Positions 1,878 through 55,147 of a stretch of 64,000 nucleotides of DNA are shown in pieces. Origin of the DNA: Thermoplasmata archaeon (GTDB lineage: Archaea > Thermoplasmatota > Thermoplasmata > WALJ01); NCBI GenBank assembly GCA_027006785.1, contig JALTFR010000032.1, forward strand, positions 544-64,543, written 5' to 3'. The notes beneath the pieces were generated by a model that worked only from the letters and a program-made list of their open reading frames with translations, searched no databases and was not told the origin of the DNA. A program made the position numbers and the translations under genes. Every line of letters starts with the position of its first letter. Position 1 is the stretch's first letter.

Positions 1878-1879
1878 AG

Positions 1880-4278: not shown

Positions 4279-4291
4279 AAACAAATCTCAA

Positions 4292-4298
4292 TTTTTTT
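4292..4298 (+). terminator. Oligo-T terminator between convergent operons
   Basis: T7 run 14 nt after the stop at 4278. Confidence 0.4.
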
Positions 4299-4305
4299 AT
4301 TCTTA

Positions 4306-4848: not shown

Positions 4849-4879
4849 AATCTCACCACAAAAGTGGAAGAAAAGGGGT

Positions 4880-7753: not shown

Positions 7754-7757
7754 TCGA

Positions 7758-9439: not shown

Positions 9440-9441
9440 TT

Positions 9442-15443: not shown

Positions 15444-16110
15444 TCTCAACGCTCCCGTATTCCTTCATCAATTCGTCCTTTCTTCCGTGGAAGATGACCT
15501 TACCTTTCTTCATGATATAGACGGTATCCGCTATGTTCTCGACAAGGCCGGTGGAATGCGTGGCTATGACGGTGGTGCCGGACCTCTCCTTTATGAAATC
15601 CTGAAGGGTTCTTGATGTAAGTGGGTCGAGGCCGTAAACCGGCTCATCCAGCAGAAGATTCTTCGGAGAGTGCATTATCGCAGCTATGATCGATATCTTC
15701 TGCTTCATTCCCTTGGAGTATGTGCCTATCTCGTAATCCATGAAATCCAGGATTCCCAGGTTTCCAGCAAGTGTGTCTATCCTTTTATCAGCATTTTCCA
15801 CCTCTCTCACCGATGCGATGAAGTGAAGGAACTCGCGGCCGGTGAGCCTCTCATACAGATAGGGCATCTCGGGCAGGTATCCCGTTATCCTTCTGGCATC
15901 TATGGAATCCCCTTCAACCGGTATGCCATCCACCTCTATGCTCCCCGAGTCGAAGGGAATGATGTTCGCGCATATCTTAAGAAGCGTGCTCTTTCCGGCA
16001 CCGTTCTCTCCGAGTATCGCTGTAACCTCCCCGTCCCTGAAGTCCAGGCTCACCATGTCCAGTGCCCGTATCTCACCGTATTCCTTCAAAAGTCCTCTTA
16101 TCTCTATCAT
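15394..16110 (-). CDS. ABC transporter ATP-binding protein
   Basis: GENGAGKST, YSKGMKQK, LLLDEP. Confidence 0.93.
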   Translation of the reverse strand: MIEIRGLLKEYGEIRALDMVSLDFRDGEVTAILGENGAGKSTLLKICANIIPFDSGSIEVDGIPVEGDSIDARRITGYLPEMPYLYERLTGREFLHFIASVREVENADKRIDTLAGNLGILDFMDYEIGTYSKGMKQKISIIAAIMHSPKNLLLDEPVYGLDPLTSRTLQDFIKERSGTTVIATHSTGLVENIADTVYIMKKGKVIFHGRKDELMKEYGSVENAYFSLVKGRPPNIRS

Positions 16111-17230: not shown

Positions 17231-17334
17231 TGCCGAGGACGGGGTTTGAACCCGTGACCTTCGGATTTCCCGGGAACGAGCGTCCGCATCAGTCCCTATG
17301 AGTCCGACGCTCCACCAGGCTGAGCCACCTCGGC
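17231..17334 (-). tRNA. tRNA-Met(CAT), elongator type, 30-nt intron at 37/38 (17267-17296); CCA not encoded
   Basis: GCCGAGG acceptor, GCTC/GAGC D arm, TCGGA-CTCATA-[intron]-A-TCCGA anticodon arm, ACGGG-TTCAAAC-CCCGT T arm. Confidence 0.93.
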
Positions 17335-30425: not shown

Positions 30426-30484
30426 TGCAACAGATTTGACCGCCATAGCTTTATATAGAGGAAAAATGGGCGAGCGGTGATAGC

Positions 30485-31438
30485 ATGGAGTCCTATGATA
30501 CAGTGATAATAGGTGCCGGCCCGGCAGGTTTGAATGCCGCCATATATGCAGTACGTGCCGGTCTGAGTGCCATAGTGCTGGACGGAAAGACAGCCGGTGG
30601 TCTGGTAGCAGAGTCTCCGGCCATAGAGAACTATCTCGGTTTCAGCAGCATAGACGGTATGAAACTCTCGGCCAAGTTCAAGACACATGCACAGCACTAT
30701 GTCCAGATAAAGGAAATAGAGCCAGTAACGGACATAATCAGAAAAGAAGATGTGTTTCTTGTGAAGACAGAGAGAGGCGAGTACTCCGCGAAGACCATAA
30801 TACTGGCAACGGGGAGCGAGCACCGCCACCTCGGAATACCCGGTGAGGAGGAGTTCTCCGGGCGTGGAGTTTCTTACTGCTCCACATGTGACGGATTCTT
30901 CTTCAGGAACAAGGAGGTTCTGGTCGTGGGTGGTGGAAATACCGCTGTCGGCGACGCTATATACCTTAAAGGTGTCGGCTGCAATGTCAGGCTCGTTCAC
31001 AGAAGGGGCTCACTCCGTGCTGAAAAGGCCCTGCAGGATAAGATGTTCTCCATGGACATACCTGTTATGTGGGATTCCGAGCTTGTGGAGATATATGGTG
31101 ATAGCAAGGTCAAAGGAGTCAGGGTAAGGAACAAAAAGACGGGTGAGATAAGCGATGTGGCGGTTGATGGTATTTTCATATCGATAGGGGAGGACCCGAA
31201 TAACGATCTTGCCAAAAATCTCGGTGTAAAGCTTGCTGATGATGGATACGTGATAATAGATAGGTTCAGCAGGACCAATGTACCGGGAGTGTATGCTGCC
31301 GGTGACCTTACCGGAGGGGTCAAGCAGATAATCGTAGCTGCATCCGAAGGTGCGGTAGCAGCTCTTTCTGCCTACGAGGACATAAACAACCCCTACTGGA
31401 AGAAAGATGAAGGAAGTGTAGAAGGATTTGAAATATGA
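30485..31438 (+). CDS. trxB: Thioredoxin reductase
   Basis: GAGPAG, GVSYCSTCDG, GGGNTA, YAAGD. Confidence 0.95.
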   Translation: MESYDTVIIGAGPAGLNAAIYAVRAGLSAIVLDGKTAGGLVAESPAIENYLGFSSIDGMKLSAKFKTHAQHYVQIKEIEPVTDIIRKEDVFLVKTERGEYSAKTIILATGSEHRHLGIPGEEEFSGRGVSYCSTCDGFFFRNKEVLVVGGGNTAVGDAIYLKGVGCNVRLVHRRGSLRAEKALQDKMFSMDIPVMWDSELVEIYGDSKVKGVRVRNKKTGEISDVAVDGIFISIGEDPNNDLAKNLGVKLADDGYVIIDRFSRTNVPGVYAAGDLTGGVKQIIVAASEGAVAALSAYEDINNPYWKKDEGSVEGFEI

Positions 31439-31448
31439 GGTGAGAAAA

Positions 31449-32099
31449 ATGGAACAACTGATAGATGAGGAATCAAGGCAGGAACTGAAAGAAAAGTTCC
31501 AGAAAGAGATGAAGAGGCCCGTCGAACTCATGGTCTTCATAGACCCGGAGGACAGCGAGCACAAGGATTATTCCGATTTCTCGGTGCAGATATCGAAGGA
31601 ACTGGCCGAGATAGACGACAGAATAAAGGTGAAAGTTTTCAACAAGGGCGACCCCGAGTGTGAGAAATACGATGTAAGCCGCTTTCCTAGCATACTCATA
31701 GACCCTGACTCCGGTTATAAGATAAGGTACACCGGAGCACCAGCCGGGCAGGAGGGCTGGGGATTCGTGGAGACAATAACCCTTGTTTCAAGGGATGACC
31801 CGGGGCTGCTTCCGGTAAATGCTGAGAAGCTCAGAGGCCTCAGCAAGGATGTGAAGGTGCAGGTATATGTAACACCTTCGTGCCCTTATTGCCCGATGGC
31901 AGTCGTTCTGGCCAACAAGGCGGCCATAGCTGCAAAGGGAAAGGTCATGGCAGAGTGTGTGGAAGCATACGAGAACCCGGACCTTGCGGACCTCTACAAT
32001 GTGAGCGCTGTGCCCCAGCAGGTTCACAATGATGGTGCTCTGATATCCGTTGGTGTGCAGCCTGAGGACAAGTTCGTGGACGACATACTGAAGTCCTGA
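31449..32099 (+). CDS. Protein disulfide oxidoreductase (two thioredoxin folds, only C-terminal CPYC present)
   Basis: RYTGAPAGQEGWGF, VTPSCPYCP, VSAVP; ATG follows SD GAGGTGA. Confidence 0.88.
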   Translation: MEQLIDEESRQELKEKFQKEMKRPVELMVFIDPEDSEHKDYSDFSVQISKELAEIDDRIKVKVFNKGDPECEKYDVSRFPSILIDPDSGYKIRYTGAPAGQEGWGFVETITLVSRDDPGLLPVNAEKLRGLSKDVKVQVYVTPSCPYCPMAVVLANKAAIAAKGKVMAECVEAYENPDLADLYNVSAVPQQVHNDGALISVGVQPEDKFVDDILKS

Positions 32100-38394: not shown

Positions 38395-39369
38395 TCAGGC
38401 GGGCCAGTATATCTTAACGAGAGGAAGCAGGCCTCTCGTTTCAATGTCGAAATCATCGTAATACTGGATGATCAGCCTCAGAAGAAGGTCAATGTCCACC
38501 AGAGTGATAGGGATATTAGAGCGCTCCGCCTCATATCTCGCCTCCTTTGAAAAGCCTCCGGTTGAAACATAGAGACCCTTGTTTCCCTGCCTCAGCGCAC
38601 CTACAAAGCTCCGTATCTCATGGGAGCCCATCTGGCCGTTCCTGTGTTTGACCTCAACCACTATTCTGGGCTCTTCAAGCCCGAGCCCATCGGGAGATGC
38701 CACGACATCTTTTCCCCTGTCCGAGCCTCTCGGAGAGACTATGGTCTTATAGCCCATTGCCCTGAGAAGACCGGCCACGAGTTCCTGCATCTGCTCCCAG
38801 TTCAGGGCCATTATCCTGTCCTTCACGAACTCTCTGGAGCGCTCTTCCATATCTTCTTTGATCTCCTCGATTTCCTCACGATCTTCTTCAGACACCTGTT
38901 TCTTTCCCTCAAGAATGGCCAGAATCTCAGTCTTTGCCTCATCAGGAACAAGAAACAGGGCGGATATCGCGCCCAGACTGTTCTTCGTGGAGACGGAAAG
39001 CAGGTCTCTGCTGACCGCTCCGACCCATTCAACCTTCCTTACATGGCGGTATTCAACCCTTTTACTGTCATACTCATATTCTCCTGACACCTTTCCGATA
39101 TGGTATGTCCTCGTGCTCGGCTGATAGGTGATGACATAATCTCCAATATTGATCTCAAACAGAAATCTCACGAGCTGTCCGCTTGAAATGGCGATTTTTC
39201 CCCTGCTATATTCTCCGTATTTTTCTTTCATCAATCTTTTGATATCGCTCTTTTTCTTTCCTGAAAGGTCTCCGAGCTCATCCCATCCCATCGCCACGAT
39301 TCCGTTCTCAAGGAAGTCATCTATGAGATGGGCTCCTTCTCCTGCCCGTATCATCCACATCTTTGGCAT
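38395..39369 (-). CDS. Mrr-family (type IV) restriction endonuclease
   Basis: N-terminal MWMIRAG...VAMGW domain; C-terminal DRGKD...IVVEVKHR, GLYVSTGGFS.EAR.EA. Confidence 0.9.
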   Translation of the reverse strand: MPKMWMIRAGEGAHLIDDFLENGIVAMGWDELGDLSGKKKSDIKRLMKEKYGEYSRGKIAISSGQLVRFLFEINIGDYVITYQPSTRTYHIGKVSGEYEYDSKRVEYRHVRKVEWVGAVSRDLLSVSTKNSLGAISALFLVPDEAKTEILAILEGKKQVSEEDREEIEEIKEDMEERSREFVKDRIMALNWEQMQELVAGLLRAMGYKTIVSPRGSDRGKDVVASPDGLGLEEPRIVVEVKHRNGQMGSHEIRSFVGALRQGNKGLYVSTGGFSKEARYEAERSNIPITLVDIDLLLRLIIQYYDDFDIETRGLLPLVKIYWPA

Positions 39370-39487
39370 GAATATGATATATGGTCTCCCGTATTTGAGC
39401 ATTGTCCTCTCTTTCCATACAATAACACGAATTAATAAACCCATATATGACCGCAACCTTTATACGCATTTCCCTGTGCCAGCACCC

Positions 39488-44274: not shown

Positions 44275-45357
44275 CTACGGTATTATCTCTGTGGTGTTGT
44301 TCACTTCCGGGTAATTCAGGTCAGACTCCGATATCAGGCCGCTGTCCAGGGCCTTTTCCACCCTCGGCTTTATCTCTTTCATCAAATCTATGAGGTATTT
44401 CACGGTCTCGCATATAAGTTCAAACCCATCATCACCCCACAGCCTTTCCTTGTTTGCGAACAGGCATCTTCCACCGCAGACATCGTAATATGGACAGGAA
44501 GGGCACGGCTCATCGGGAAACACTGAGTTGCGGACATCTTCAGGCTCGCTCTTCTCTATGTTTCCAACATGGTTCCATTCAAATTCCCCTCCTATGGGGC
44601 AGGCAAGTATCTCCCCATCGGTTGATATTGCAAAGGCATCCCTTCCTGAACCGCAGGGAAGACCGGGTTTCTCAAGACCGAACAATCTCTTCATGACCCC
44701 CTGAAAAGGTACTATTCCCGGGACCTTTCCCATATTCTCTATTGAATCTATCCAGAAATCAGCCAGTTTTTTGAGGCCGGGATAGTAGGATTCGCTCAGC
44801 CATCGGTTAAAGTCCTTCCATGAGTCATCCGGATCCCACACCACATTGAGCTGCCAGTGCACATGGTCGAAAGGACGGAGAGAAAGAAGATGCATGACAT
44901 CTCTGTAGATGTCGCTCTCCTGTGAGACAGCCATTCTCGCAATAAGGTCCCCTTCAAAACCTCTTTTTCTTATAAGTTCAGCATTTTTTACCGCCGCTTT
45001 ATACACTCCTTTTCCACGGTAATAGTCCGTTATTTCCTCCGCCCCGTCCAGAGATATAAGTATCGTATGCATCCTTTTCAGCATCCCGGGTCTCAGAACA
45101 TGGAGGAAGATGCCGTTGGTCTGGAGAAAGAAATTTCTGGCAGGGATTTCCTTCATGATTCTCTCCATGTAATCCATATTCAGAAGTGGCTCTCCGCCGT
45201 AGAAGGCTATGTCAGCTTCGGGGTCATTCTCTATGAACCTCTTCAGGTGATCGAAATCATAGCTTATCTCGTGTGGCATGACCTCTTCGGGTATGCTTCC
45301 GCCGCAGTATCGGCAGTTCAGGTTGCATACCGGTGTCGTGAATATGAACCAGAGCAC
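44275..45357 (-). CDS. Radical SAM/SPASM protein (AF0577/TIGR04084-like)
   Basis: CNLNCRYC, FYGGEPL, LQTNG, SLDG, CGSG...CP, CPSCPYYDVCGGRC; GTG start. Confidence 0.85.
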   Translation of the reverse strand: MLWFIFTTPVCNLNCRYCGGSIPEEVMPHEISYDFDHLKRFIENDPEADIAFYGGEPLLNMDYMERIMKEIPARNFFLQTNGIFLHVLRPGMLKRMHTILISLDGAEEITDYYRGKGVYKAAVKNAELIRKRGFEGDLIARMAVSQESDIYRDVMHLLSLRPFDHVHWQLNVVWDPDDSWKDFNRWLSESYYPGLKKLADFWIDSIENMGKVPGIVPFQGVMKRLFGLEKPGLPCGSGRDAFAISTDGEILACPIGGEFEWNHVGNIEKSEPEDVRNSVFPDEPCPSCPYYDVCGGRCLFANKERLWGDDGFELICETVKYLIDLMKEIKPRVEKALDSGLISESDLNYPEVNNTTEIIP

Positions 45358-45495
45358 AGGGTGGGATTGCAGGTTAGATATTACTTTTTCCCCACCTCTG
45401 AATTCATCACTTCCAGTACACGAAAATGTCCTTCTGCACGCAGATAAAGAATATTGTTATATAGGAAAAGGATTTTGCCCGCCTTAGGCGTTAAA

Positions 45496-45792
45496 ATGGT
45501 AACGCAAACAGAAATTAAGAAGATGCTGGAGAACGGGACCTCCCAAGTTCCGCATGGAGAGGTCTACATAGTAGAGGAAAGATGCAAAGGTTGCGGTCTG
45601 TGCATAGCGTTCTGTCCCAAGCATGTGCTGGTTCAGTCAGACAGGATAAACGAAAAGGGATACCATCCACCTGAACTGGTGGAAGTACCACCCACCGATA
45701 TATGTATAGGGTGCGGGATGTGCGAGCGCATATGTCCGGATTTCGCCATTTTTGTGAAAACAGACAAGGACAAGGAGAAAAAGAGGGATTGA
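45496..45792 (+). CDS. korD: 2-oxoacid:ferredoxin oxidoreductase delta subunit (2x[4Fe-4S])
   Basis: CKGCGLCIAFCP, CIGCGMCERICPDFAI. Confidence 0.88.
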   Translation: MVTQTEIKKMLENGTSQVPHGEVYIVEERCKGCGLCIAFCPKHVLVQSDRINEKGYHPPELVEVPPTDICIGCGMCERICPDFAIFVKTDKDKEKKRD

Positions 45793-45793
45793 T

Positions 45794-46933
45794 GTGAGCA
45801 ATGAAATCCTTGAAGGAGAGTATTTTTTGAGCGGAGATGCAGCTGCAGCAGAGGGTGCCGTGGCCGCAGGTTGCAAGGTCTTTGCCGGATACCCAATAAC
45901 TCCATCCAGTGAGGTGGCGGAAAAGCTAGCAAGAAGGCTCCCGCAGGTAGGGGGCGTGTTCATACAGATGGAAGACGAACTCGGTTCAATAGCTGCCATA
46001 CTTGGTGCCTCGTGGGGAGGAAAGAAGAGCATGACAGCCACTTCAGGCCCGGGTTTCAGCCTTATGATGGAGAACTACGGCCTTGGAATGATGACAGAGA
46101 CGCCAACGGTCATCGTGAATGTTCAGAGGGGCGGCCCCTCCACAGGATTGCCCACACTTCTGGGCCAGGGAGAGTTCATGCAGGCCAAGTTCGGTTCCCA
46201 CGGGGTCTTTGAAGCAATAGCACTGGCACCTGAATCACCGCAGGAATGCTTCGATTTCACCATAAAGGCCTTCAATCTGGCCGAGAAGTACCGACAGCCC
46301 GTCGTCGTATTGATGGATGAATCCACAGGTCACCTTTTCGAGAAGGTCAGGATTCCTCCGGAGGACGAGATTGAGATAATAAACAGAAAGAAGCCAAAAG
46401 AGGTCCCCTATCCACCGTTCATGCCAGATGATGACTTGATACCGCCAATGCCGATTGTTGGCGAAGGCCACCAGATACATGCCACCGGCCTCACGCATGA
46501 CGAGTACGGAAGGCCCACCATAACTGCCGAAGCACAGGAAAAATACGTGAAGCGCTTGGTCGAGAAGATAAGAAAGCATGCCGACGAGATAATGGATTAT
46601 GAAGAGGTCATGACAGATGATGCGGATGTGATCGTCGTGGCATATGGAATAACCGCAAGGTCGGCCAGGAGAGCCATAATACAGGCAAGAGAGAAAGGAA
46701 TAAAGGCCGGTCTCATAAGGCTGAAGGTGGTGTGGCCGTTCCCGGACAAGATTCTCCAGAAATACGCGGATAAGAAGTTTGTAGTTGCGGAGGTCAATCA
46801 GGGCCAGGCCCTTATCATGGTAGAGAGAGCCATAAGAAAGAGCGCCACCTTCGTTGGGAAGATGGGCGGAGAACCACACAGGCCGGAAGAGATTCTCAAA
46901 GGAATAGAGGAGGCATACAATGCCAATTCATAA
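45794..46933 (+). CDS. korA: 2-oxoacid:ferredoxin oxidoreductase alpha subunit
   Basis: FAGYPITPSSE, QMEDELGS, TATSGPGFSLM, QRGGPSTG. Confidence 0.92.
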   Translation: MSNEILEGEYFLSGDAAAAEGAVAAGCKVFAGYPITPSSEVAEKLARRLPQVGGVFIQMEDELGSIAAILGASWGGKKSMTATSGPGFSLMMENYGLGMMTETPTVIVNVQRGGPSTGLPTLLGQGEFMQAKFGSHGVFEAIALAPESPQECFDFTIKAFNLAEKYRQPVVVLMDESTGHLFEKVRIPPEDEIEIINRKKPKEVPYPPFMPDDDLIPPMPIVGEGHQIHATGLTHDEYGRPTITAEAQEKYVKRLVEKIRKHADEIMDYEEVMTDDADVIVVAYGITARSARRAIIQAREKGIKAGLIRLKVVWPFPDKILQKYADKKFVVAEVNQGQALIMVERAIRKSATFVGKMGGEPHRPEEILKGIEEAYNANS

Positions 46934-47843
46934 GGCAGAACACCATCCTCTGGATGCGTATCTCAGGACAGAAAGGCTCCCGCATGTATGGTGTCCGGGC
47001 TGCGGTCTGGGAATAGCGCTGGGTGCCTATCTAAGAGCGCTCCAGAATGTCGGTTTTGACCCGCAGGAAACCGTCATGGTCTCGGGAATAGGCTGCTCCG
47101 GAAGGGCGGCCGGATATGTCAAGATGGACTCCTTCCACACAACTCACGGAAGGGCAATACCCTTTGCCGTGGGGCTCAAGGCCGCAAGGCCGGAGTTGAA
47201 CGTGACCGTGTTCAGCGGTGATGGAGACCTGTTCTCCATAGGTGGCAACCACATACTCCACGCTGCTAGAAGGAATGTGAACATCACTGTGCTTGCCATA
47301 AACAACTATGTCTACGGAATGACCGGTGGCCAGCTTGCGCCGACGACCCCGGAGTCATCCATAACTACGACATCCCCCTACGGTAACATAGAGTCGCCAT
47401 TCAACATAGCCGGGCTCATGGCCGTGGCAGGTGCATCCTATGTGGCCCGCTGGACCACGGTTCACGAGAGAAGGCTTCAGAAGTCCATAGAGAAGGCACT
47501 GACCAAGAGGGGATTCTCAATAGTCGAGATAATGTCCCCGTGCCCCACAACATTCGGAAGAAGGAACAACATGAGGGGCATAGTGGACTCCATGATGTAT
47601 TACAAGAAGTATTCGGTAATAAAAGAGCATCCGAACCCGCTGGACGGAGTTATAAAGCCGGGTGAGAAGTTCATAGTAGGGGAGTTCATGGACGCCCCGG
47701 ATGAGCCCACCTTCGAGGACAAGCTTGAGGAGCTGAAGAACAAGGAGTTCCTGAAGACAAGTCAGGCTGACAGAACAACATGGATACTGGAGCACAGAAG
47801 ACATCTTGAGACACTTGCTAAGATAATCGGAGGTGAGCAGTGA
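46920..47843 (+). CDS. korB: 2-oxoacid:ferredoxin oxidoreductase beta subunit
   Basis: WCPGCG, GIGCSGR, HGRA, GDGDLFSIGGNH, YGMTGGQ, SPCPT. Confidence 0.92.
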   Translation: MPIHKAEHHPLDAYLRTERLPHVWCPGCGLGIALGAYLRALQNVGFDPQETVMVSGIGCSGRAAGYVKMDSFHTTHGRAIPFAVGLKAARPELNVTVFSGDGDLFSIGGNHILHAARRNVNITVLAINNYVYGMTGGQLAPTTPESSITTTSPYGNIESPFNIAGLMAVAGASYVARWTTVHERRLQKSIEKALTKRGFSIVEIMSPCPTTFGRRNNMRGIVDSMMYYKKYSVIKEHPNPLDGVIKPGEKFIVGEFMDAPDEPTFEDKLEELKNKEFLKTSQADRTTWILEHRRHLETLAKIIGGEQ

Positions 47844-48388
47844 TGGCCCGCATAGAGATGCAGATAGGTGGTTTCGGAGGCCAAGGTGTCATACTGGCAG
47901 GCCTGGTAATAGCCAGAGCGCTCTCCCTCTACGACGGAAGGGAAGCGGTGTTCACACAGGCGTATGGGCCCGAGGCCAGGGGTGGAGCGTCTGCGTCCGG
48001 AATAGTCGTGGACGATGAAAGGGTTGACTACCCGTACCCCCTGCACCCCGAGATACTGGTGCTCATGTCGCAGGAAGCAATGACGACATACCTTCCAAAC
48101 ATGAGAAAGGGAGGCATTCTGATAATAGAGGAGAACCTGGTGCACCTTGATGGTGAGCCGGATGTTTCCGAACTTCATAAGATTCCTGCCACGAAGATAG
48201 CTGAGGAACTAGGGAACAAGATAGTCACCAACATAGTCATGGTCGGCTTCATAGCGAAGGTCGTAGGAGACAGGATAGGCCTGAAGAAGGAGAGTATCAA
48301 GAAGTCGGTGCTCGAAATGGTCCCTGCAAAGGTCAGGGAATTGAACGAAAAAGCGTTTGAGATGGGATATAACTACGAGGAGGCATGA
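47840..48388 (+). CDS. korC: 2-oxoacid:ferredoxin oxidoreductase gamma subunit
   Basis: GFGGQGVIL, YGPEARGG, NIVMVG. Confidence 0.92.
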   Translation: MMARIEMQIGGFGGQGVILAGLVIARALSLYDGREAVFTQAYGPEARGGASASGIVVDDERVDYPYPLHPEILVLMSQEAMTTYLPNMRKGGILIIEENLVHLDGEPDVSELHKIPATKIAEELGNKIVTNIVMVGFIAKVVGDRIGLKKESIKKSVLEMVPAKVRELNEKAFEMGYNYEEA

Positions 48389-48389
48389 A

Positions 48390-49112
48390 ATGTCCAAAGA
48401 GAAAGAGAATGATATGAAGATGATAACCGTGTACATAATGGGAAAGGCCTACAAGGTGCCTTTCGGGCTAACGATAATGAAGGCCATGGAGTATGCGGGA
48501 TACAGGTTCATAAGAGGATCAGGGTGCAGGGCAGGATTCTGCGGTGCCTGCGCCACGGTCTACAGGAGAAAGGGAGAGTACAAGCTCAGGACCGCCCTTG
48601 CCTGCCAGACCACTGTCGAGGACGGAATGTACCTGGCACAGCTTCCCTTTGTGCCATCCAACAGGAAGGAGTACGACATAGAGGAACTTGACCCGAAGAA
48701 GAATGTCCTTTCAGAGTATTACCCTGAGATAAACAGGTGCGTTTCGTGCAACACATGTACCAAGGCCTGCCCGCAGGAACTTCAGGTCATGGACTATATT
48801 CAGGCCTCAATAAGGGGGGACTATAAGCTGGTGACCTCCCTCTCATTTGACTGCATACAGTGTGGCCTTTGCGTCGTGAGGTGCCCCGCCGAGATAACCC
48901 ACTACCATGTGGCACAGCTTGCCAGAAGGCTCTATGGAAAATACTATTCACCCGTACCCCAGCACCTTCTGGACAGGTTGAAGGAGATAGAGGAAGGGAA
49001 GTTCGATTCAGAGATAGAGGAGCTGAAAAAGATGGATGCTAAGAAGCTTGAAGAGGTCTATGTCGCAAGGGACATACAGAAGATACCCAGAGGGGAGGTG
49101 GCTGGAGAATGA
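48390..49112 (+). CDS. Fumarate reductase-type Fe-S subunit ([2Fe-2S] plus 2x[4Fe-4S])
   Basis: GCRAGFCGAC...LAC; CVSCNTCTKACP; CIQCGLCVVRCP. Confidence 0.88.
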   Translation: MSKEKENDMKMITVYIMGKAYKVPFGLTIMKAMEYAGYRFIRGSGCRAGFCGACATVYRRKGEYKLRTALACQTTVEDGMYLAQLPFVPSNRKEYDIEELDPKKNVLSEYYPEINRCVSCNTCTKACPQELQVMDYIQASIRGDYKLVTSLSFDCIQCGLCVVRCPAEITHYHVAQLARRLYGKYYSPVPQHLLDRLKEIEEGKFDSEIEELKKMDAKKLEEVYVARDIQKIPRGEVAGE

Positions 49113-50758
49113 AGCTCATAGACGGATACACCGAGGAGATGCGCGAGTCCATAGAGAAGGTCGAGAAGACAAGGGCGGAGCGCATGAAGAAGAGCTATCC
49201 TGCCCTGACGATGGAGGAAAGGGAGGAGGTTCTCAATAAATACCATCCTGACTACAAGCCGGACAAAAAGAGGGCTGTCAGGGTCGGACCAAATAAGGGG
49301 GAAGTCGCGCCACATGAGGTCGTTGACCTTCTGGAGGCCTATCCTCTGATAACTGCAAAAGATGTTGACCTCAAGACCATAGACTACGATGTGGACCTCC
49401 TGATAATCGGAGGAGGTGGAGCTGGAACTGTGGCCGCGCTCTGGGCCAATGATAACGGCATATCTGCCGAGAACATACTGATGGCCACAAAGCTCAGGCA
49501 CGGAGATGCCAACTCAATGATGGCGCAGGGAGGCATACAGGCGGCGGATACACCTGAGGACAGCCCTGCAAGGCATTATCTCGATGTCATAGGAGGAGGT
49601 CACTTCGCGAACAAGCCGGAACTTGTGGAAGCGCTCGTCAAGGACGCTCCTTTCATACTCAAATGGCACGAGGAACTGGGCGTCATATATGACAAGGACG
49701 AGAACGGGAACTACATAGAGAGGCCCGGCGGCGGAACATCAAGGTTCAGGCTCCATTCTGCCAAGGACTACACCGGAATGGAGATAATGAGGGTCATCAG
49801 GGATGAGTTCAGGAACAGGCAGATACCTGTTCTAGAGTTCACACCTGCAGTGGAACTTCTAAAAGATGAGTCCGGAAATGTGGCAGGAGCGGTCCTCTTC
49901 AACATGGAGACCGAGCAGTACTACACCGTGCGTGCAAAGGCCACCGTGCTTGCGACAGGCGGTTTCGGAAGGCTTCACATACAGCAGTTCCCAACGACGA
50001 ACCATTACGGAGCGACTGCAGACGGGCTTGTGATGGCATACAGGGCCGGAGCGAAGCTCAGGGACCTTGACACCGTCCAGTACCACCCGACAGGCGCAGC
50101 ATATCCGGAGCAGATAGTCGGTCTCCTGATAACCGAGAAGGTAAGGGGAATGGGAGCGCAGCCTGTGGACAAGAACGGAGACCTCTTCGTCTTCCCGATG
50201 GAACCGAGGGATGTTGAGGCCGCCTCATTCATAAAGCGCTGTGCCGACGGAAAATGCGTGCAGACGCCCACGGGAATGCATGGAATCTGGCTCGACTCCC
50301 CGATGATAGAGGAAATCGAAGGTGAGGGTGCAATAAGGAAGAATCTCGATGCCATGTACAGGATGTACAAGCGCTTTGGAATAGACATGACCAAGGACCC
50401 GATACTCGTCTTCCCCACACTGCACTACCAGAACGGAGGAGTTGAGATAGATGCGAGCGCTCAGACATCCATACCAGGACTGTTCGCAGGAGGAGAGGTC
50501 GAAGGTGGAGTGCATGGAAAGAACAGGCTGATGGGAAATTCGCTGCTCGATTACAATGTCTTCGGAAGAAGGGCTGGAATAAGCGCTGCCCAGTGGGCCT
50601 CCAAGCGCTCCAAGCCCGGAAAGCTGAGCCTCGCCCATGTGGATTCCTTCGTAAAGGAACTGGAAAAGGCGAAGATACCTCCGGAGCGCAGGTCTCCGAT
50701 GCTTCTGCCAGAGTATAGAGGCGAAAAGGTTCTCGCAAGGATGCTTGATATCCTCTAA
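49109..50758 (+). CDS. Fumarate reductase / succinate dehydrogenase-family flavoprotein (TfrA-like)
   Basis: IGGGGAG, ANSMMAQGG, QYHPTG, TEKVRG, PRD, HYQNGG, NRLMGNSL. Confidence 0.9.
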   Translation: MKLIDGYTEEMRESIEKVEKTRAERMKKSYPALTMEEREEVLNKYHPDYKPDKKRAVRVGPNKGEVAPHEVVDLLEAYPLITAKDVDLKTIDYDVDLLIIGGGGAGTVAALWANDNGISAENILMATKLRHGDANSMMAQGGIQAADTPEDSPARHYLDVIGGGHFANKPELVEALVKDAPFILKWHEELGVIYDKDENGNYIERPGGGTSRFRLHSAKDYTGMEIMRVIRDEFRNRQIPVLEFTPAVELLKDESGNVAGAVLFNMETEQYYTVRAKATVLATGGFGRLHIQQFPTTNHYGATADGLVMAYRAGAKLRDLDTVQYHPTGAAYPEQIVGLLITEKVRGMGAQPVDKNGDLFVFPMEPRDVEAASFIKRCADGKCVQTPTGMHGIWLDSPMIEEIEGEGAIRKNLDAMYRMYKRFGIDMTKDPILVFPTLHYQNGGVEIDASAQTSIPGLFAGGEVEGGVHGKNRLMGNSLLDYNVFGRRAGISAAQWASKRSKPGKLSLAHVDSFVKELEKAKIPPERRSPMLLPEYRGEKVLARMLDIL

Positions 50759-50769
50759 GAGGGTTTGAC

Positions 50770-53175
50770 ATGGCTGAAAAGAAGAAGCCGAGGATTGGCG
50801 TATATGTCTGCCACTGCGGCGGTAACATCTCAGACACAGTGTATGTTGACCAGGTGGCGGAATATGCCAAGAACATGGAAGACGTTGTGGTCGTACGCAG
50901 CATCTCACACATGTGCTCCGAAGAGGGACAGAATGCAATAATCGAAGATATCGGAAAGGAGCACCTCGACAGGGTGGTAGTGGCAGCATGCTCCCCTCAG
51001 TTTCAGGGAGAGACATTCAAGAAGGCAGCTGCGAAGGCGGGCCTCAACCCGTACATGATAGAGATGGCCAACATAAGGGAACAGAGCGCATGGCCGCACT
51101 TCGAGGACAGGCAGAAGGCAACTGAGAAGGCAGAGGTACTTACGAGGATGGCTGTAGAGCGGATGAGGGAGGCAGAGCCCGCCAAACCCGAGAAGATAGA
51201 GATAGGAAAGACCGTACTGGTAATCGGAGCCGGAATCGCAGGTATTCAGGCCTCACTCGACCTTGCCGATGCTGGCTTTGATGTCCATCTTGTGGAGAAG
51301 AAACCAGTCATAGGCGGCCACATGGCACAGCTTTCCAGAACATTTCCTACAAACGACTGTGCATCGTGCATTCTTTCTCCAAAGATGGCGGATGTCGTGG
51401 AGCATCCGGGAATACACCTTCACAGGAATTCAGAGATTGTGGAGGCCAAGGGGACCGTCGGAAATTTCCAGATAAAGATCAAGGAAAATCCGGTCTATGT
51501 AGACCCGGTTGCATGTACTGCATGTAACAGGTGTGCGGAGGTCTGCCCCGTACTGGTGCCAAACGAGAACGACCTCGGTCTGACTCTCAGAAAGGCCATA
51601 GACATACCTTCGGGCATTGCGGTGCCTCACGCATATGTGCTTGATGACAAGGCCTGCCTAGGTCTGGAGCCGCTGGCATGTGGAAAATGCGCCGAGGTCT
51701 GTGACGTGAATGCGATAAACTATGACCAGAAGCCAAAGGAGATAGATGTGAAAGCAGATACCATAATCGTAGCAACAGGTTATGATATCTTCGACGCAAA
51801 GCTCAAGCCACAGTACGGCTATGGAAAGTTCGAAAATGTCCTGAACGCCCTTGAACTTGAAAGAATACTTGTGCATATGGGCGAAGGCAAGATGATAAAG
51901 AAGCTCGGAAAGAAGATCGCTTTCGTGCAGTGCGTCGGCTCCAGGGATGCACAGGTCGGGAACCTTTATTGTTCAAGGATATGCTGCATGTACGCGACGA
52001 AACTGGCGCTCATGCTTAAGAGTGCGGATCCATCAAAAGACATTTACATATTCTACACTGACCTGAGGGCCTATGGAAAGGGATTCGAGGAGTATTATCG
52101 CAGGGCTCAGGAGCTGGGTATTAAATATGTGAGAGGAAGGCCGGGAGAGCTGCATGAGAATCCTGAGAACAAGAAGATAATCGTTAAGGTTGAGGATACC
52201 CTTACGAGAAACATACTCCAGGGAGAGTTCGACCAGGTGATACTCTCAGTGGGACTGACGCCCAGTAAGGGAACCATAGAGATTGCGGAGATGCTCAAGC
52301 TCCCGAGAAGCCCGGACGGATTCCTGCAGGAAGCACATGCAAAGTTCAAACCGCTGGATACTGCTGTCGAAGGTATATTCATAGCCGGAACCGCTCAGGG
52401 ACCGAAGGATATACCTGATAGCGTTGCACAGGCGAGTGGGGCCGCTGCAAGGGCCATAAGGCTGATGAACCGCGGAGAACTGGAACTCAGCCCCGTCAAG
52501 GCCACCATAGACACTGAACTCTGTGATGGTTGTGGAAAGTGTGTAGAGGCCTGCCCTGCGGATGCGATATATATGATGGGTGGATTCGCCGCTGTCAATA
52601 CCCCAGCATGTAAGGGCTGCGGAGCATGTATATCATCCTGTCACACCGGCGCCATAGACCTGAAGGTATTCAGCAATGCCAAGGTTATGGAAGAGATCGA
52701 GGCAGCGCTCGAGGACAAGAAGCCCGGAGAGAACAGGATACTGCTCTTTGCTGACGATATGTGCACATACAGGCTGGCGGATGGTGTAGGTACTGCCAAG
52801 ATGAAATATTCACCAGATGTCCTCATAATACGGGTACCATCCAGTTCAAGGGTCACTCCTGAGATGATGGCAAAGGCATTCGAGCTCGGCGCAGATGGAA
52901 TAATGCTGGGAGAATGTGAGCCAGCCGTTTCACCCTATCTGGGAACAGGGCCGGTCATAGCCAGACAGGTGGAGGAACTCAAATCAATGCTTGAAAAGGC
53001 AGGTATAGAGAAGGAGAGGGTTCTTTTCACCCAGTATGTCACAGTGATGCTCTCCGCATTTGTAAACCACACGAACAGGATGTCGGACCTCACGAGAAAG
53101 CTGGGCAACATACCTGAGGAGAAGAGAAAGAAACTGGCCGAGATAGTCAAACAGATGAAGGAGGAATCTAAGTGA
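50770..53175 (+). CDS. hdrA: Heterodisulfide reductase subunit A with fused, degenerate MvhD domain
   Basis: VCHCGGNI, AACSP, IGAGIAG, KTFPTNDC-type RTFPTNDCASC, inserted ferredoxin, QCVGSRD, CSRICC, C-terminal ferredoxin, then MvhD-like domain. Confidence 0.95.
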   Translation: MAEKKKPRIGVYVCHCGGNISDTVYVDQVAEYAKNMEDVVVVRSISHMCSEEGQNAIIEDIGKEHLDRVVVAACSPQFQGETFKKAAAKAGLNPYMIEMANIREQSAWPHFEDRQKATEKAEVLTRMAVERMREAEPAKPEKIEIGKTVLVIGAGIAGIQASLDLADAGFDVHLVEKKPVIGGHMAQLSRTFPTNDCASCILSPKMADVVEHPGIHLHRNSEIVEAKGTVGNFQIKIKENPVYVDPVACTACNRCAEVCPVLVPNENDLGLTLRKAIDIPSGIAVPHAYVLDDKACLGLEPLACGKCAEVCDVNAINYDQKPKEIDVKADTIIVATGYDIFDAKLKPQYGYGKFENVLNALELERILVHMGEGKMIKKLGKKIAFVQCVGSRDAQVGNLYCSRICCMYATKLALMLKSADPSKDIYIFYTDLRAYGKGFEEYYRRAQELGIKYVRGRPGELHENPENKKIIVKVEDTLTRNILQGEFDQVILSVGLTPSKGTIEIAEMLKLPRSPDGFLQEAHAKFKPLDTAVEGIFIAGTAQGPKDIPDSVAQASGAAARAIRLMNRGELELSPVKATIDTELCDGCGKCVEACPADAIYMMGGFAAVNTPACKGCGACISSCHTGAIDLKVFSNAKVMEEIEAALEDKKPGENRILLFADDMCTYRLADGVGTAKMKYSPDVLIIRVPSSSRVTPEMMAKAFELGADGIMLGECEPAVSPYLGTGPVIARQVEELKSMLEKAGIEKERVLFTQYVTVMLSAFVNHTNRMSDLTRKLGNIPEEKRKKLAEIVKQMKEESK

Positions 53176-53576
53176 CACGTGTTGTGATGCTGAATGATAA
53201 TAGCGAGGCCTTCACAAAGAAGGTCAATGAGATGACGAACGACATGATAACCCTCTGTGAACAGTGCGGAATATGCAGTACCAGTTGCCCTGTTGCAGAG
53301 GACATGGATATACCTCCTTCGGAGATAATGAGGCTGGTACAGCTGGGAGACGAGTATGTTCTGGAGACAAAGGCGATATGGGTCTGTGCATCATGCTACA
53401 CATGTACGGTGCGCTGCCCGAGAGGAGTGGACCTTTCCAAGGTTACCGAGGCATTGAGGCAGATAAATCTGAGAACGAACGTCAATTATCTGGATATTGA
53501 CAATCTCGATTCCGAGGAAGTCGAGGAGTTACCGGCAATAGCGCTCGTCAGTGCCATGAGGAAGTATACAGGGTGA
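53172..53576 (+). CDS. hdrC: Heterodisulfide reductase subunit C
   Basis: CEQCGICSTSCP, IWVCASCYTCTVRCPRG. Confidence 0.93.
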   Translation: MTRVVMLNDNSEAFTKKVNEMTNDMITLCEQCGICSTSCPVAEDMDIPPSEIMRLVQLGDEYVLETKAIWVCASCYTCTVRCPRGVDLSKVTEALRQINLRTNVNYLDIDNLDSEEVEELPAIALVSAMRKYTG

Positions 53577-53577
53577 T

Positions 53578-54480
53578 ATGATGAAGAAGTTTCCATACTA
53601 CCCGGGATGCACGCTGAAACAGTATCCAAAGAAGTTCGGAATACCATCCGAGGAGTCTGCCAGAGCACTGGGACTGGAGATGGTCGAGATTCCGAGGTGG
53701 AACTGCTGCGGTGCTGTCGCATCCCTTACTGCAGATGATATGATGCATCAGGTGGCTCCGATACGAAACCTGATAAGGGTTCAGGAGATGAATGACGAGG
53801 GTCTTGTGGACAACGAGTACAGGCTTGTGGTTTTCTGCTCCATGTGTTTCAACACACTGAAAAGGGCAAACATGATGGTAAAGGAGAACGAAGCTGCCCT
53901 CAATACCATAAACGAGTTCATGGACAGAGAGCAGGACTACAAGGCCAATGTTGAAGTCGTTCATTTCCTTGAAATACTCCGGGACATGGGCTTTTACAGG
54001 CTGGAAGACATGATAAAGAAGCCACTGAAGGGTCTGAAAATAGCTCCTTACTACGGATGCAACCTTCTCAGGCCGAAAGAGGTCGGTATAGACAACCCCG
54101 AGGCTCCGACAATAATGGAGAACTTCGTGGAGGCTCTGGGCGCAGAGGTCATTGATAACCCGCTGAAGTCACTGTGTTGTGGAAGCTATCATACCGTTGG
54201 CGGTCACAAGGACATAGTTGCGGAAAGGACATACGCCATTGTCAATGCAGCCAGAAAAGCCGGTGCCGATATGATGATAACGGCATGTCCGCTCTGTGCT
54301 TTCAATCTGGACGACCGGCAGGCCCTGACCAAGGAACTCCATCCTGAGTTTCAGCATATGCCGGTTCTGTACTTCACACAGATTCTGGCCTTTGCTCTCG
54401 GACTGGAGGACAAAGCCGGCCTCGAGGAGAACTATGTGGATGCCCGCCCGATTCTTAGAGAAAAGGGCCTGATGGACTGA
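53578..54480 (+). CDS. hdrB: Heterodisulfide reductase subunit B
   Basis: Two CCG domains: YYPGC...WNCCG...CSMC and YYGC...CCG...ACPLC. Confidence 0.94.
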   Translation: MMKKFPYYPGCTLKQYPKKFGIPSEESARALGLEMVEIPRWNCCGAVASLTADDMMHQVAPIRNLIRVQEMNDEGLVDNEYRLVVFCSMCFNTLKRANMMVKENEAALNTINEFMDREQDYKANVEVVHFLEILRDMGFYRLEDMIKKPLKGLKIAPYYGCNLLRPKEVGIDNPEAPTIMENFVEALGAEVIDNPLKSLCCGSYHTVGGHKDIVAERTYAIVNAARKAGADMMITACPLCAFNLDDRQALTKELHPEFQHMPVLYFTQILAFALGLEDKAGLEENYVDARPILREKGLMD

Positions 54481-54514: not shown

Positions 54515-55147
54515 GTGAGAGTCATAATCAACTGCGCTGCATCCGTTGACGGGAAGATAGCACTGCCGAGCAGGAAGCAGACAAGGATATCCAGCGAGGA
54601 TGACATAGCAAGGGTGCACAGGCTGCGGGCCGAGGCGGACGCCATTCTCGTGGGCGTCGGAACGATCCTTTCAGACGATCCGAAACTCACGGTAAAGGAG
54701 AAGTATGCTCGGGGAAAGAACCCTCTGCGCGTCGTTCTGGACACGCATCTCCGCACACCTGAGGGCGCCATGGTGCTCAACGACATGGCACCCACCCTCA
54801 TATTCAACTCCCTGAAGGACGGAAGCTACGGAAATGCGGAACTGTTCAGATGTCCTGAGAACAACGGGCATGTGGATCTGAACTGCGTCCTTTCGGAACT
54901 GGAGAGAAGAGGAATAGGAACCCTCATGGTCGAGGGTGGCTCAACTGTGATATGGGAGTTTCTCAGGCAGGGAAAGGCAGATGAACTGAACATATTCTTG
55001 GGAGATATGGTGATAGGCGGAAGGGATTCGCCAACAGTCGCAGACGGCAGGGGAGCGCAGTCTATCGAGGATATCGTAAAACTTGAGTTCATAGAGGCCA
55101 GGAGGATGGGTGGAGGTGTACTGCTCAGGTACCGCCTGCCTTCATGA
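54515..55147 (+). CDS. 2,5-diamino-6-ribosylamino-4(3H)-pyrimidinone 5'-phosphate reductase (RibD C-terminal type)
   Basis: AASVDGKIA, DAILVGVGTILSDDP, RVVLD, LMVEGG. Confidence 0.9.
   Translation: MRVIINCAASVDGKIALPSRKQTRISSEDDIARVHRLRAEADAILVGVGTILSDDPKLTVKEKYARGKNPLRVVLDTHLRTPEGAMVLNDMAPTLIFNSLKDGSYGNAELFRCPENNGHVDLNCVLSELERRGIGTLMVEGGSTVIWEFLRQGKADELNIFLGDMVIGGRDSPTVADGRGAQSIEDIVKLEFIEARRMGGGVLLRYRLPS

Follow-up and report, generated by a model that had tools for sequence, protein, structure and literature searches.

A Thermoplasmata operon joining a 2-oxoacid:ferredoxin oxidoreductase, a fumarate reductase-like pair and an HdrA2-type HdrABC: a possible soluble route from ferredoxin to fumarate

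A stretch of 64,000 nucleotides (nt) from a Thermoplasmata archaeon (contig JALTFR010000032.1, positions 544 to 64,543 of the forward strand; the whole stretch is hereafter the window, numbered from its first letter) carries nine consecutive plus-strand open reading frames (ORFs) at positions 45496-54480. In order, they encode the four subunits of a 2-oxoacid:ferredoxin oxidoreductase (korD, korA, korB and korG), an Fe-S protein, a flavoprotein related to that of fumarate reductase (Frd), an HdrA fused to an MvhD-like domain (HdrA::MvhD), HdrC and HdrB. The source scaffold, 133.8 kb long, derives from a hydrothermal metagenome (ENA ERZ23495671). We propose, with a probability of roughly 0.45, that in this version of the system, which has no donor module, reduced ferredoxin from Kor would drive the reduction of fumarate to succinate through an Hdr-wired reductase. 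The genes present, their cofactor motifs and active-site residues, and the conservation of synteny were observed directly and are presented first.

The junctions between the nine genes measure, in order, +1, -14, -1, +1, -4, +11, +11 (or -4) and +4 (or +1) nt. The initial annotation, made from the letters alone, had described nine co-oriented genes with overlaps or gaps of at most 11 nt, and the ORFs, domains and junctions agree with that description. Motifs resembling GGAGG or GAGGTG lie just upstream of internal genes and none precedes korD, which argues for a short or absent korD leader. The gene korD and a divergent radical-SAM gene have a 138-nt intergenic region in common (45358..45495, read on the plus strand), in which a putative archaeal TATA box, TTATATA (45457-45463), stands ~33-39 nt upstream of the korD ATG and would serve as the promoter element. 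The layout fits one archaeal polycistronic unit, and co-transcription of the nine genes would be expected.

Domain and family calls were made with Pfam and NCBIfam models, with bit scores set against curated cutoffs; the Pfam annotation covered ~74 kb of the contig (the 64-kb window and ~10 kb beyond). It contained no hydrogenase, formate dehydrogenase, mcr or mtr genes, and no genes for coenzyme M (CoM) or coenzyme B (CoB) were seen in the same ~74 kb. Queries for MvhA, MvhG and HycI from a relative gave no tblastn match in the window, and an MvhD query matched only the HdrA-fused domain within it. When each protein was scanned for membrane segments with a 19-residue Kyte-Doolittle mean, the maximum was 1.62; no convincing transmembrane segment was found in any of the nine products, and there is no hydrophobic (anchor) subunit among them. 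The tblastn, Pfam and hydropathy results thus bear out the earlier statement that the operon has no hydrogenase, formate dehydrogenase or membrane anchor subunit and the window no mcr/mtr genes, and they support a predicted soluble Kor/Frd-like/Hdr system. The contig also carries Topo VI, archaeal ribosomal and SAM-synthetase genes in its Pfam annotation, which mark the host as an archaeon, as does a tRNA gene with an intron; FolD and SHMT genes are present too, and these two point to a C1 chemistry based on folate rather than methanopterin. The ~74 kb annotated give no hint of a methanogen.

The flavoprotein (549 amino acids (aa), 49109..50758, plus strand) has a FAD_binding_2 domain for flavin adenine dinucleotide (FAD), and its residues 93-500 align with both FrdA and SdhA of E. 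coli. The fumarate site is intact when compared with E. coli FrdA: H326 corresponds to H232, T342/E343 to T244/E245, R367 to R287, H439 to H355 and R473 to R390, and none of them varies among 22 homologs drawn from archaea and bacteria. The position of FrdA His44, where FAD is attached covalently, is occupied by Asn135, likewise an invariant Asn among the homologs, and from this residue the FAD of the flavoprotein is predicted to be non-covalent. In E. coli FrdA, H44 variants with non-covalent FAD permit fumarate reduction and not succinate oxidation, so the Asn points to fumarate reduction as the working direction. An AlphaFold2 model of the protein (pLDDT 76.8) has E. coli FrdA as its best fold match (1kf6_A, TM 0.61). 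Absent from both TfrA and FrdA are a conserved, confidently folded 95-aa N-terminal extension and a short C-terminus. The TfrA model NF004900 scored 327 bits against a cutoff of 718 and covered only model positions 6-409 of 546, leaving ~140 C-terminal residues of the model with no counterpart in the flavoprotein.

The Fe-S gene (48390..49112, plus strand) encodes a 240-aa subunit resembling FrdB and the N-terminal part of TfrB, with one plant-type [2Fe-2S] motif (C46-x4-C-x2-C-x17-C72) and two CxxCxxCxxxCP motifs. All of its 12 Cys fall within cluster motifs; it has no CCG domain, and since both ferredoxin-type motifs have four Cys there is no [3Fe-4S] signature. It belongs to a small family that stands apart (118 clusters at E <= 1e-30 in a set of 1.84 billion cluster representatives), a sequence search found no close solved relative, and no fusion of the Fe-S subunit to a CCG domain occurs among the best 150 cluster representatives. 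A natural fusion of another kind, the 727-aa protein P0313, joins the Fe-S subunit (residues 4-227) to a FAD_binding_2 flavoprotein (residues 293-674), which supports the view that the two window proteins would form one enzyme.

Three other assignments of the pair were considered and set aside. Classical complex II was rejected on Asn135 in place of His, the lack of a [3Fe-4S] signature and the lack of a membrane anchor. L-aspartate oxidase was rejected on the obligatory Fe-S partner, the tricarboxylic acid (TCA)-branch neighbours in relatives, and a Gly at the position of NadB Glu121. APS/PAPS reductase (AprAB-Qmo) gave a remote match only (E 2.6e-11) and is retained as an analogy, not as membership.

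HdrA::MvhD (801 aa, 50770..53175, plus strand) aligns over its core, residues 5-649, with the bifurcating HdrA of M. thermolithotrophicus (5odc_A) at 708 bits, with every Cys motif aligned. The core is ~55-60% identical to this solved protein and is complete, holding FAD and the Cys motifs of six [4Fe-4S] clusters. On NCBIfam models it scored 918 bits over the full length of the HdrA2 model (cutoff 1100) and 683 bits on HdrA (cutoff 1400); by these scores it belongs to the HdrA2 subclass, though under the model cutoff. The MvhD/FlpD domain (residues ~657-779; 52738-53106) is without three of the five Cys conserved in free-standing MvhD/FlxD: FLCxWC has become FADDMC, MCSGR has become PSSSR, and GCHPGDCHY has become GECEPAVSPY. 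All of the 120 nearest homologs (P0129-P0247), which are fusions of ~790-810 aa, are without three to five of the five MvhD Cys and show D-C-S-C-S or D-T-S-S-S at these positions. This domain probably has a structural role only. For the HdrA2 MvhD domain, a [2Fe-2S] cluster was predicted (PMC5296606).

HdrC, with two [4Fe-4S] clusters by Pfam and Cys map, may start at GTG 53172 (134 aa, with a 4-nt overlap with hdrA) or at ATG 53187 (129 aa) and ends at 53576 on the plus strand; the GTG start is likelier because the HdrC of relatives has 133-134 aa. Its score on the methanogen HdrC model was 74 against a cutoff of 350. HdrB (53578 or 53581..54480, plus strand) has two Pfam CCG motifs and likewise a likelier upstream start, ATG 53578, which gives the 300 aa of its relatives. 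In 299-aa numbering the motifs are C10...CC42/43...C86xxC89 and C160...CC199/200...C236xxC239. HdrB scored 133 bits against solved HdrB chains, 159 bits on the NCBIfam model SdhE (MFR) and 151 bits on HdrB (TIGR03288, cutoff 345), both family scores being below cutoff. It is the sole CCG protein of the operon. The HdrABC architecture is therefore present as HdrA with FAD and six [4Fe-4S] motifs, HdrC with two [4Fe-4S] and HdrB with two CCG motifs, and that of the HdrA2B2C2 subclass as the HdrA-MvhD fusion, the gene order A-C-B and no hydrogenase genes.

Membership of canonical TfrAB or canonical HdrABC, which the initial annotation had considered, for the case of a methanogen genome, as a way in which its reading might fail, was rejected: every curated Tfr and Hdr cutoff was missed, with 327 against 718 bits on the TfrA model and a TfrB that is not a single polypeptide. 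The NCBIfam TfrB model was matched piecewise, by the Fe-S protein at 19-85 (the [2Fe-2S] part), by HdrC at 122-224 (the di-cluster part) and by HdrB at 269-471 (the CCG part), so that HdrB and the Fe-S subunit would together be a split equivalent of methanogen TfrB, with no free thiol needed. The rival reading makes a thiol/disulfide pair, either of low molecular weight or bound to a protein, an obligatory third partner: ferredoxin would drive disulfide reduction at HdrB, and the thiols would be re-oxidised in a Tfr-type fumarate reduction. Both HdrB CCG motifs are complete, CoM-SH and CoB-SH are the donors of the methanogen Tfr (Heim et al., 1998, cited in PMC6315080), GcvH genes adjoin the flavoprotein gene in six related loci, thioredoxin reductase and thioredoxin-like genes lie in the window ~15 kb away, and the same shuttle was considered by Rubin-Blum et al. 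(PMC6315080). However, a single CCG protein leaves no separate thiol-oxidising site on the Frd side, the Cys of the Fe-S subunit are all taken up in clusters and the flavoprotein has 2 Cys, the ~74 kb hold no CoM/CoB or mcr genes, and there are CCG proteins that simply exchange electrons with SdhAB (as the similarity to SdhE suggests). With one CCG protein per set and no spare Cys in the Frd pair, a diffusible thiol shuttle is not needed and direct transfer is simpler. We regard an obligatory thiol couple as improbable. The Hdr-coupled soluble circuit suggested at the outset accordingly survives in part: Kor, the Frd-like pair and Hdr stand as one ferredoxin-linked soluble system, but the thiol couple does not stand as its obligatory partner.

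The Kor genes precede the others. The delta subunit KorD (98 aa, 45496..45792, plus strand; Pfam Fer4 families) is ferredoxin-like, with two CxxCxxCxxxCP motifs (Cys 30/33/36/40 and 70/73/76/80) for two [4Fe-4S] clusters, and its best NCBIfam matches are OorD/OGOR_delta, under cutoff. The alpha subunit KorA (45794..46933, plus strand, GTG start; POR_N and PFOR_II) exceeded the cutoff of the 2-oxoacid:acceptor oxidoreductase alpha model NF006412 (532 vs. 411 bits) and stayed below that of the OGOR-specific model (381 vs. 579). The best match of the beta subunit KorB (46920..47843, plus strand), which binds thiamine pyrophosphate (TPP_enzyme_C), is 2-oxoglutarate ferredoxin oxidoreductase beta at 253 bits (cutoff 364). 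The gamma subunit KorG, also called KorC (47843..48388, plus strand; Pfam POR; 181 aa in the gene call of the source contig), scored 195 bits on NF006323 (cutoff 235). The best NCBIfam matches of the whole set lie in the Kor/Oor group and not in Por, Vor or Ior, and the most likely Kor substrate is 2-oxoglutarate; sucCD neighbours in relatives also favour succinyl-CoA/2-oxoglutarate.

The direction of Kor is not fixed by these neighbours, since the malic enzyme, fumarase and sucCD genes of relatives suit a reductive C4-to-C5 branch equally well. The initial proposal of an oxidative Kor in a peptide fermenter therefore loses its privileged place. A rival explanation is oxidative confurcation in a fermenter or syntroph, in which succinate oxidation would be driven by co-oxidation of ferredoxin toward H+ or NAD+, so that succinate derived from 2-oxoglutarate could be oxidised completely. 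Kor would give one reduced ferredoxin and one succinate precursor per 2-oxoglutarate, a 1:1 ratio that suits it, and relatives bearing Mvh could in principle evolve H2. Against it stand the invariant Asn in place of the covalent-FAD His required for efficient succinate oxidation, a window with neither hydrogenase nor NAD module, and a mean potential of ferredoxin and succinate that is barely enough even at very low H2. Confurcation is thus very unlikely.

Relatives of the flavoprotein were sought by a pattern scan with one genome per species. At least 591 places in these species-representative genomes, from many archaeal and bacterial phyla, encode such a relative. The best 80 of these at least 591 are 61-90% identical and come from many phyla: their archaeal carriers are Thermoplasmata, Theionarchaea, Methanofastidiosum, Mnemosynella, Thermococci, Heimdall-/Promethearchaeota, Culexarchaeum, Korarchaeota-like archaea and Desulfurococcales, and their bacterial carriers include Bipolaricaulota/Acetothermia, Thermotogae, WOR-3, Aerophobetes, Chloroflexales, Spirochaetota, Aminicenantes and Stahlbacteria. 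A homolog search from a bacterial Flx-type member gave only metagenomic proteins, and no cultured carrier, among the matches listed. Archaeal and bacterial flavoproteins (L002-L081) are 61-70% identical, far above what is typical of vertical inheritance, with gene order permuted; the module has probably spread repeatedly by horizontal transfer.

Synteny was counted in 39 loci whose flanks were complete, meaning 9 kb or more of upstream and 4 kb or more of downstream sequence. The Fe-S gene adjoins the flavoprotein gene in 39/39, and the other parts follow with HdrB in 35/39, HdrA in 35/39, HdrC in 34/39, MvhD (separate or fused) in 33/39 and korDABG in 25/39. The prediction that the parts would co-occur thus held, and the set appears as a recurrent, selected unit. 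The commonest order is hdrA-mvhD-X-hdrC-hdrB-FeS-Flav, where X is variable, with kor on either side; HdrC-HdrB stands immediately upstream of the Fe-S gene in most loci, including the HdrA2-type loci L043, L047, L070, L086, L087, L088 and L089. Recurrent neighbours are sucC (14 loci), sucD (12), class-I fumarase alpha (11) and beta (10), malic enzyme (7) and GcvH (6). In L032, a Thermotogae metagenome-assembled genome (MAG), korDABG, hdrA-mvhDGA-hdrCB, the Frd pair, malic enzyme, class-I fumarase and sucCD share one locus. The Thermotogae loci L032 and L031 thereby place the whole route from pyruvate/malate to 2-oxoglutarate beside a proposed H2-driven electron supply. The GcvH (lipoyl carrier) gene adjoins the flavoprotein gene in L014, L018, L023, L024, L041 (4047-4439) and L064, mostly of the Flx type; GcvH is a candidate protein-bound dithiol/disulfide partner for HdrB, and none is found in the window.

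The nearest species-representative, an uncultured Thermoplasmata MAG (L003, flavoprotein 90% identical), has the window gene order and the donor-less HdrA2 type. Two other close relatives (L088 and L089) have the same nine genes as korDABG-hdrA2-hdrC-hdrB-FeS-Flav; with two orders within one Thermoplasmata clade, it is the set that is conserved and not the order. The synteny across phyla and the reshuffled yet intact nine-gene set in close relatives exclude chance linkage. They bear directly on the explanation that the genes are mere neighbours, with Kor working alone, HdrA2CB acting on a disulfide of its own and the Frd-like pair independent, its substrate possibly not fumarate. HdrA2CB does stand alone in L085, the Frd-like pair occurs without Hdr in the bacterial loci L020, L038, L055 and L057, and all equivalog-level NCBIfam Tfr/Hdr cutoffs were missed. 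The co-occurrence frequencies, the adjacency of HdrB and the Fe-S gene across two domains, the operon-style junctions and the intact set in close relatives argue the other way; of other substrates for the pair, L-aspartate oxidase is unlikely and APS/PAPS reductase is a remote match only. Taken together they make unconnected neighbours a highly improbable explanation.

A donor module, Mvh or Flx-like, is present in 26/39 related loci. The variable element X is (i) mvhG-mvhA with or without a HycI-type protease, a group-3c [NiFe] hydrogenase, in 17 loci; (ii) three Flx-like genes (FrhB-like, Fer4_22 and NAD_binding_1/DHODB-type) in 9 loci, four Heimdallarchaeota among them; or (iii) a second HdrA-like flavoprotein of 846 aa in two Thermoplasmata loci (L004 and L005). 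In the latter (L004 5141-9178, and L005; 74% flavoprotein identity), the 846-aa protein (Pyr_redox_2 with a C-terminal di-cluster) and a 363-aa Fe-S protein replace Mvh/Flx, and the two would be a fourth kind of donor module. The donor-less HdrA2 type is also found as hdrA2-hdrC-hdrB-FeS-Flav in L043, L047, L070 and L086. L002 has 86% flavoprotein identity to the window, yet a Mvh arrangement, which shows the Frd pair as the constant part and the Hdr/donor part as exchanged within a narrow clade. In a WOR-3 MAG (L087, GCA_023131835.1, 1-18418), two tandem paralogous sets, each with its own Fe-S/flavoprotein pair, run as mvhA-hdrC-hdrB-hdrA-mvhD-FeS-Flav and then hdrA2-hdrC-hdrB-FeS-Flav, followed directly by Mrp/Mbh-type antiporter-module genes; the Mvh and HdrA2 types side by side in one genome would not be redundant. 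These observations support donors (Mvh, Flx-like or none) that are swappable at a constant predicted core. The lack of a hydrogenase, which the initial annotation had noted for the operon, is a peculiarity of the window lineage, as most relatives add MvhAG or Flx-like NAD(P)H modules.

The potentials of the donors are -414 mV for H2 and -320 mV for NAD(P)H. In most relatives, H2 via MvhAG-MvhD or NAD(P)H via the Flx-like subunits would enter at the HdrA flavin, and exergonic fumarate reduction (+33 mV; PMC5861303) would pay for the reduction of ferredoxin, which Kor would use; fumarate would take the place of the heterodisulfide as high-potential acceptor, and ferredoxin would be the low-potential one. 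A three-terminal bifurcation of this kind may extend to the window: NAD(P)H or F420H2 would reduce the HdrA flavin, one electron would run downhill to fumarate and the other uphill to ferredoxin, and Kor would carboxylate succinyl-CoA, giving biosynthetic or autotrophic 2-oxoglutarate. Several points speak for it. The HdrA core is fully conserved when compared with the solved bifurcating HdrA, so that a complete bifurcation-competent HdrA has been kept; relatives with Mvh or Flx are built for such a reaction; and HdrA2B2C2 performs F420H2-dependent bifurcation (PMC5296606). Ferredoxin would balance, with one made per fumarate reduced and one used per succinyl-CoA carboxylated, which would explain why kor travels with the set. 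A non-covalent FAD suits the reductive direction, in relatives the grouping of kor and sucCD with frd, fumarase and malic enzyme looks like a reductive branch, and the conserved ribD-type neighbour described below would supply a common flavin/deazaflavin precursor. However, the operon has no NAD(P)H- or F420-binding module, and the WOR-3 genome holds both Mvh and HdrA2 sets while Flx covers NADH elsewhere, so that the HdrA2 type may serve another purpose. We consider bifurcation from a hydride carrier in the window a serious but rather unlikely alternative.

According to the preferred reading, transfer from ferredoxin to fumarate, the operon would encode two soluble ferredoxin-dependent enzymes of one C4/C5 dicarboxylate stretch. 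The first would be a four-subunit 2-oxoacid (most likely 2-oxoglutarate):ferredoxin oxidoreductase, and the second a five-subunit fumarate reductase in which HdrB, HdrC and HdrA would feed the catalytic pair in place of a quinol-binding anchor. Electrons would be exchanged between ferredoxin, bound at the HdrA ferredoxin domains, and the HdrA FAD, and would pass through HdrC and the non-cubane clusters of HdrB to the Fe-S subunit, its partner FAD and fumarate. The window version would convert 2-oxoglutarate and fumarate to two succinate and CO2, with one ATP gained via succinyl-CoA. We infer here that the subunits form a physical complex wired directly through HdrB, and we also infer which way Kor runs and what the donor is. 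The Fd:CoM-S-S-CoB activity of HdrA2B2C2 (PMC5296606) offers an analogy for electron transfer from ferredoxin to fumarate. We place the ferredoxin sink slightly ahead of the hydride carrier because the operon supplies every part of it, with an aminotransferase gene beside the operon and a PEP carboxykinase gene ~15 kb away.

Several points weigh against this preference. Plain transfer from ferredoxin to fumarate would waste ~0.5 V, and an HdrA of 801 aa that is competent to bifurcate would hardly be needed for it; this speaks for a third partner that has escaped notice. All ten Cys of the HdrB CCG motifs are kept and six related loci have GcvH, so a disulfide substrate is possible. Among the Kor models only the generic 2-oxoacid alpha model was exceeded, the OGOR-specific ones being below cutoff. 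About one tenth of the full-flank loci have the Frd pair with no Hdr nearby, and HdrA2-type homologs occur without the Frd pair, as in L085. Sequence and fold searches found no PDB relative of the flavoprotein closer than SdhA, and we found no biochemical or structural characterisation of any member in the literature searched or in the PDB.

A wider proposal is put forward tentatively, as one that we think may well fail. In non-methanogens with Mvh-, Flx- or HdrA2-type HdrABC there would be no "unknown heterodisulfide": HdrB would be a wire to the Frd pair, fumarate the high-potential acceptor of bifurcation, and ferredoxin would go to Kor. In the window, whose HdrA2 form has no donor module, a single flavin would be the meeting point of ferredoxin, fumarate and perhaps a hydride carrier. 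The organisms meant are Asgard archaea, Thermoplasmata, Theionarchaea, Bipolaricaulota, Thermotogae, WOR-3, Aminicenantes and others with no CoM/CoB synthesis. Annotations of HdrABC are found in a considerable fraction of the MAGs of anaerobic archaea (Asgard among them) and bacteria, usually with the disulfide substrate left unassigned (for example PMC9723716, PMC8163825). Several hundred places have the Frd-like pair, 61-90% identical across two domains, beside HdrC-HdrB, accompanied by Kor and by the enzymes from malate to 2-oxoglutarate. The survey thus presents a widespread, modular system that comes with a module for H2, with one for NAD(P)H or with none, and that occurs in Asgard archaea, Thermoplasmata and numerous candidate phyla of bacteria. 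If the proposal is right, fumarate would be a general acceptor for flavin-based bifurcation; the low-potential ferredoxin supply for 2-oxoglutarate synthesis, or else the disposal of ferredoxin electrons, would be explained; and reconstructions that list "TfrAB", "Mvh-Hdr" and "KOR" separately would need revision. Direct wiring, if true, would answer what Hdr does in anaerobes that have neither CoM nor CoB. The window holds the minimal donor-less version, with five subunits, the simplest to reconstitute.

Around the operon, a gene for an archaeal RibD-type pyrimidine reductase (riboflavin/deazaflavin precursor; 54515..55147, plus strand; TIGR01508, 189 bits vs. a cutoff of 186) starts after a 34-nt gap 3' of hdrB, is co-oriented and may be a tenth member of the operon. 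A ribD-type gene also adjoins the cluster in L002 (14950-15612), L003 (15375-15530) and L088 (11687-12337), all Thermoplasmata-type, and in the window and these three loci it is constant whatever the order of the other cluster genes. It may represent a flavin supply co-transcribed with a two-FAD complex. Queries for SucCD, fumarase, malic enzyme and GcvH from relatives gave no tblastn match in the window and the ~9.6 kb beyond it. At 28578-32099, ~15 kb from the operon, a gene for GTP-type phosphoenolpyruvate carboxykinase (PEPCK) precedes two others, one thioredoxin-reductase-like and one with a thioredoxin fold. PEPCK could be a source of oxaloacetate for the fumarate branch, and the thioredoxin pair near it is another conceivable disulfide system.

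The radical SAM/SPASM gene divergent from the operon promoter region (44275-45357, minus strand) belongs to the AF0577 family (TIGR04084, 470 bits), and a Mrr-type restriction-endonuclease-like gene (DUF8426/Mrr_cat) lies at 38395-39456 (minus strand). The sole Rfam match in the window is a tRNA gene (17231-17334, minus strand; 104 nt, 58 bits) whose length allows an intron. A mostly minus-strand block at 1139-10335 includes GvpD/KaiC-like ATPases and a V4R-domain protein, together with ORFs of 569 aa (6107-7816), 227 aa and 202 aa for which there was no Pfam match; a 467-aa ORF at 14046-15449 likewise had none.

Reportedly, a five-subunit NADH-fumarate reductase of Hydrogenobacter thermophilus, described by Miura et al. 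in 2008, offers a precedent for a CCG-linked pair, with NADH and no HdrA. The closest parallels in gene arrangement are bacterial, and the idea raised by the initial annotation proves to have been proposed before, for Endoriftia/Thioflavicoccus (PMC6315080, PMC11636981, PMC13147460) and for P. thermosuccinogenes (PMC7282089). Rubin-Blum et al. (2019; PMC6315080, Supplemental Note 3) found korABCD and tfrAB interspersed with flxABCD-hdrABC in tubeworm symbionts (Endoriftia persephone) and Thioflavicoccus mobilis, and proposed a functional alliance or complex feeding Kor and fumarate reductase (PMC6315080). Co-expression across the Endoriftia cluster was reported later (Mitchell et al., 2024; PMC11636981), and a 2026 survey restates the bifurcation idea (PMC13147460). 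By gene arrangement alone, these clusters resemble the window in grouping HdrABC, in one orientation, with a Kor of four subunits and a soluble fumarate reductase of two, and the Endoriftia-type order, with Kor between HdrA and HdrBC, recurs in L018, L023 and L024. Endoriftia has a Flx NADH-dehydrogenase module and a separate FlxD/MvhD, neither of which is in the window; in contrast, the window comes from an archaeal host, has another gene order and carries the HdrA2-type fusion, whose MvhD-like domain is poor in cysteine, and no ACL or other reductive TCA genes were seen near its operon.

For the "succinate operon" of P. thermosuccinogenes, an Hdr-linked coupling of fumarate to ferredoxin was proposed in the passage of PMC7282089 that cites a 2019 preprint. 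That operon is alike, by gene arrangement alone, in encoding a two-gene soluble fumarate reductase with an HdrABC-type complex, in a succinate-producing anaerobe; unlike the window, it has NADH as donor through Flx and no kor, whereas the window has kor and neither Flx nor fumarase. When the window is set against the cluster type of Hdr-linked soluble fumarate reductases, the Frd pair does stand beside hdrABC, but a mid-potential donor module is absent from the operon and the 64-kb window. Tfr has also been found syntenic with an Hdr-like complex in Mnemosynellales (PMC9635834), and archaeal MAG papers otherwise give TfrA, Mvh-Hdr and KOR as separate entries and speak of an "unknown disulfide" (PMC9723716, PMC8163825).

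Among characterised enzymes, Methanothermobacter TfrAB is alike in its soluble FrdA-like flavoprotein, its [2Fe-2S] and two [4Fe-4S] clusters and the CCG domains in its electron input, and it serves the reductive branch to 2-oxoglutarate. Its TfrB is a single polypeptide (Fe-S and CCG) with a thiol donor, whereas in the window the parts are separate and joined to HdrC and HdrA. Type-E SdhABE (succinate:quinone reductase or methylmenaquinol:fumarate reductase) wires an SdhA/SdhB pair via an HdrB-like CCG protein and not a haem anchor; it differs in using quinones, in having no HdrA and in the classical flavoprotein SdhA. MvhAGD-HdrABC (5ODC; Wagner et al., 2017) shares the HdrA core and the HdrC and HdrB cofactor motifs, and the stretch mvhD-mvhG-mvhA separates hdrA from hdrC in most relatives of the window cluster; the window has neither MvhAG nor the MvhD [2Fe-2S] ligands, and its proposed acceptor is fumarate and not the heterodisulfide. 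HdrA2B2C2 of Methanosarcina acetivorans, which performs Fd-dependent reduction at HdrB and F420H2-dependent bifurcation (Yan, Wang and Ferry, 2017; PMC5296606), matches the window in the HdrA-MvhD fusion, the order A-C-B and the lack of a hydrogenase. In contrast, its acceptor is CoM-S-S-CoB in a methanogen, and the window has the Frd pair attached and no sign of methanogenesis. The concept of combining Kor, Frd and Hdr is thus already known from earlier proposals in bacteria, and what is new here is an archaeal, donor-less HdrA2-type variant in one operon with kor.

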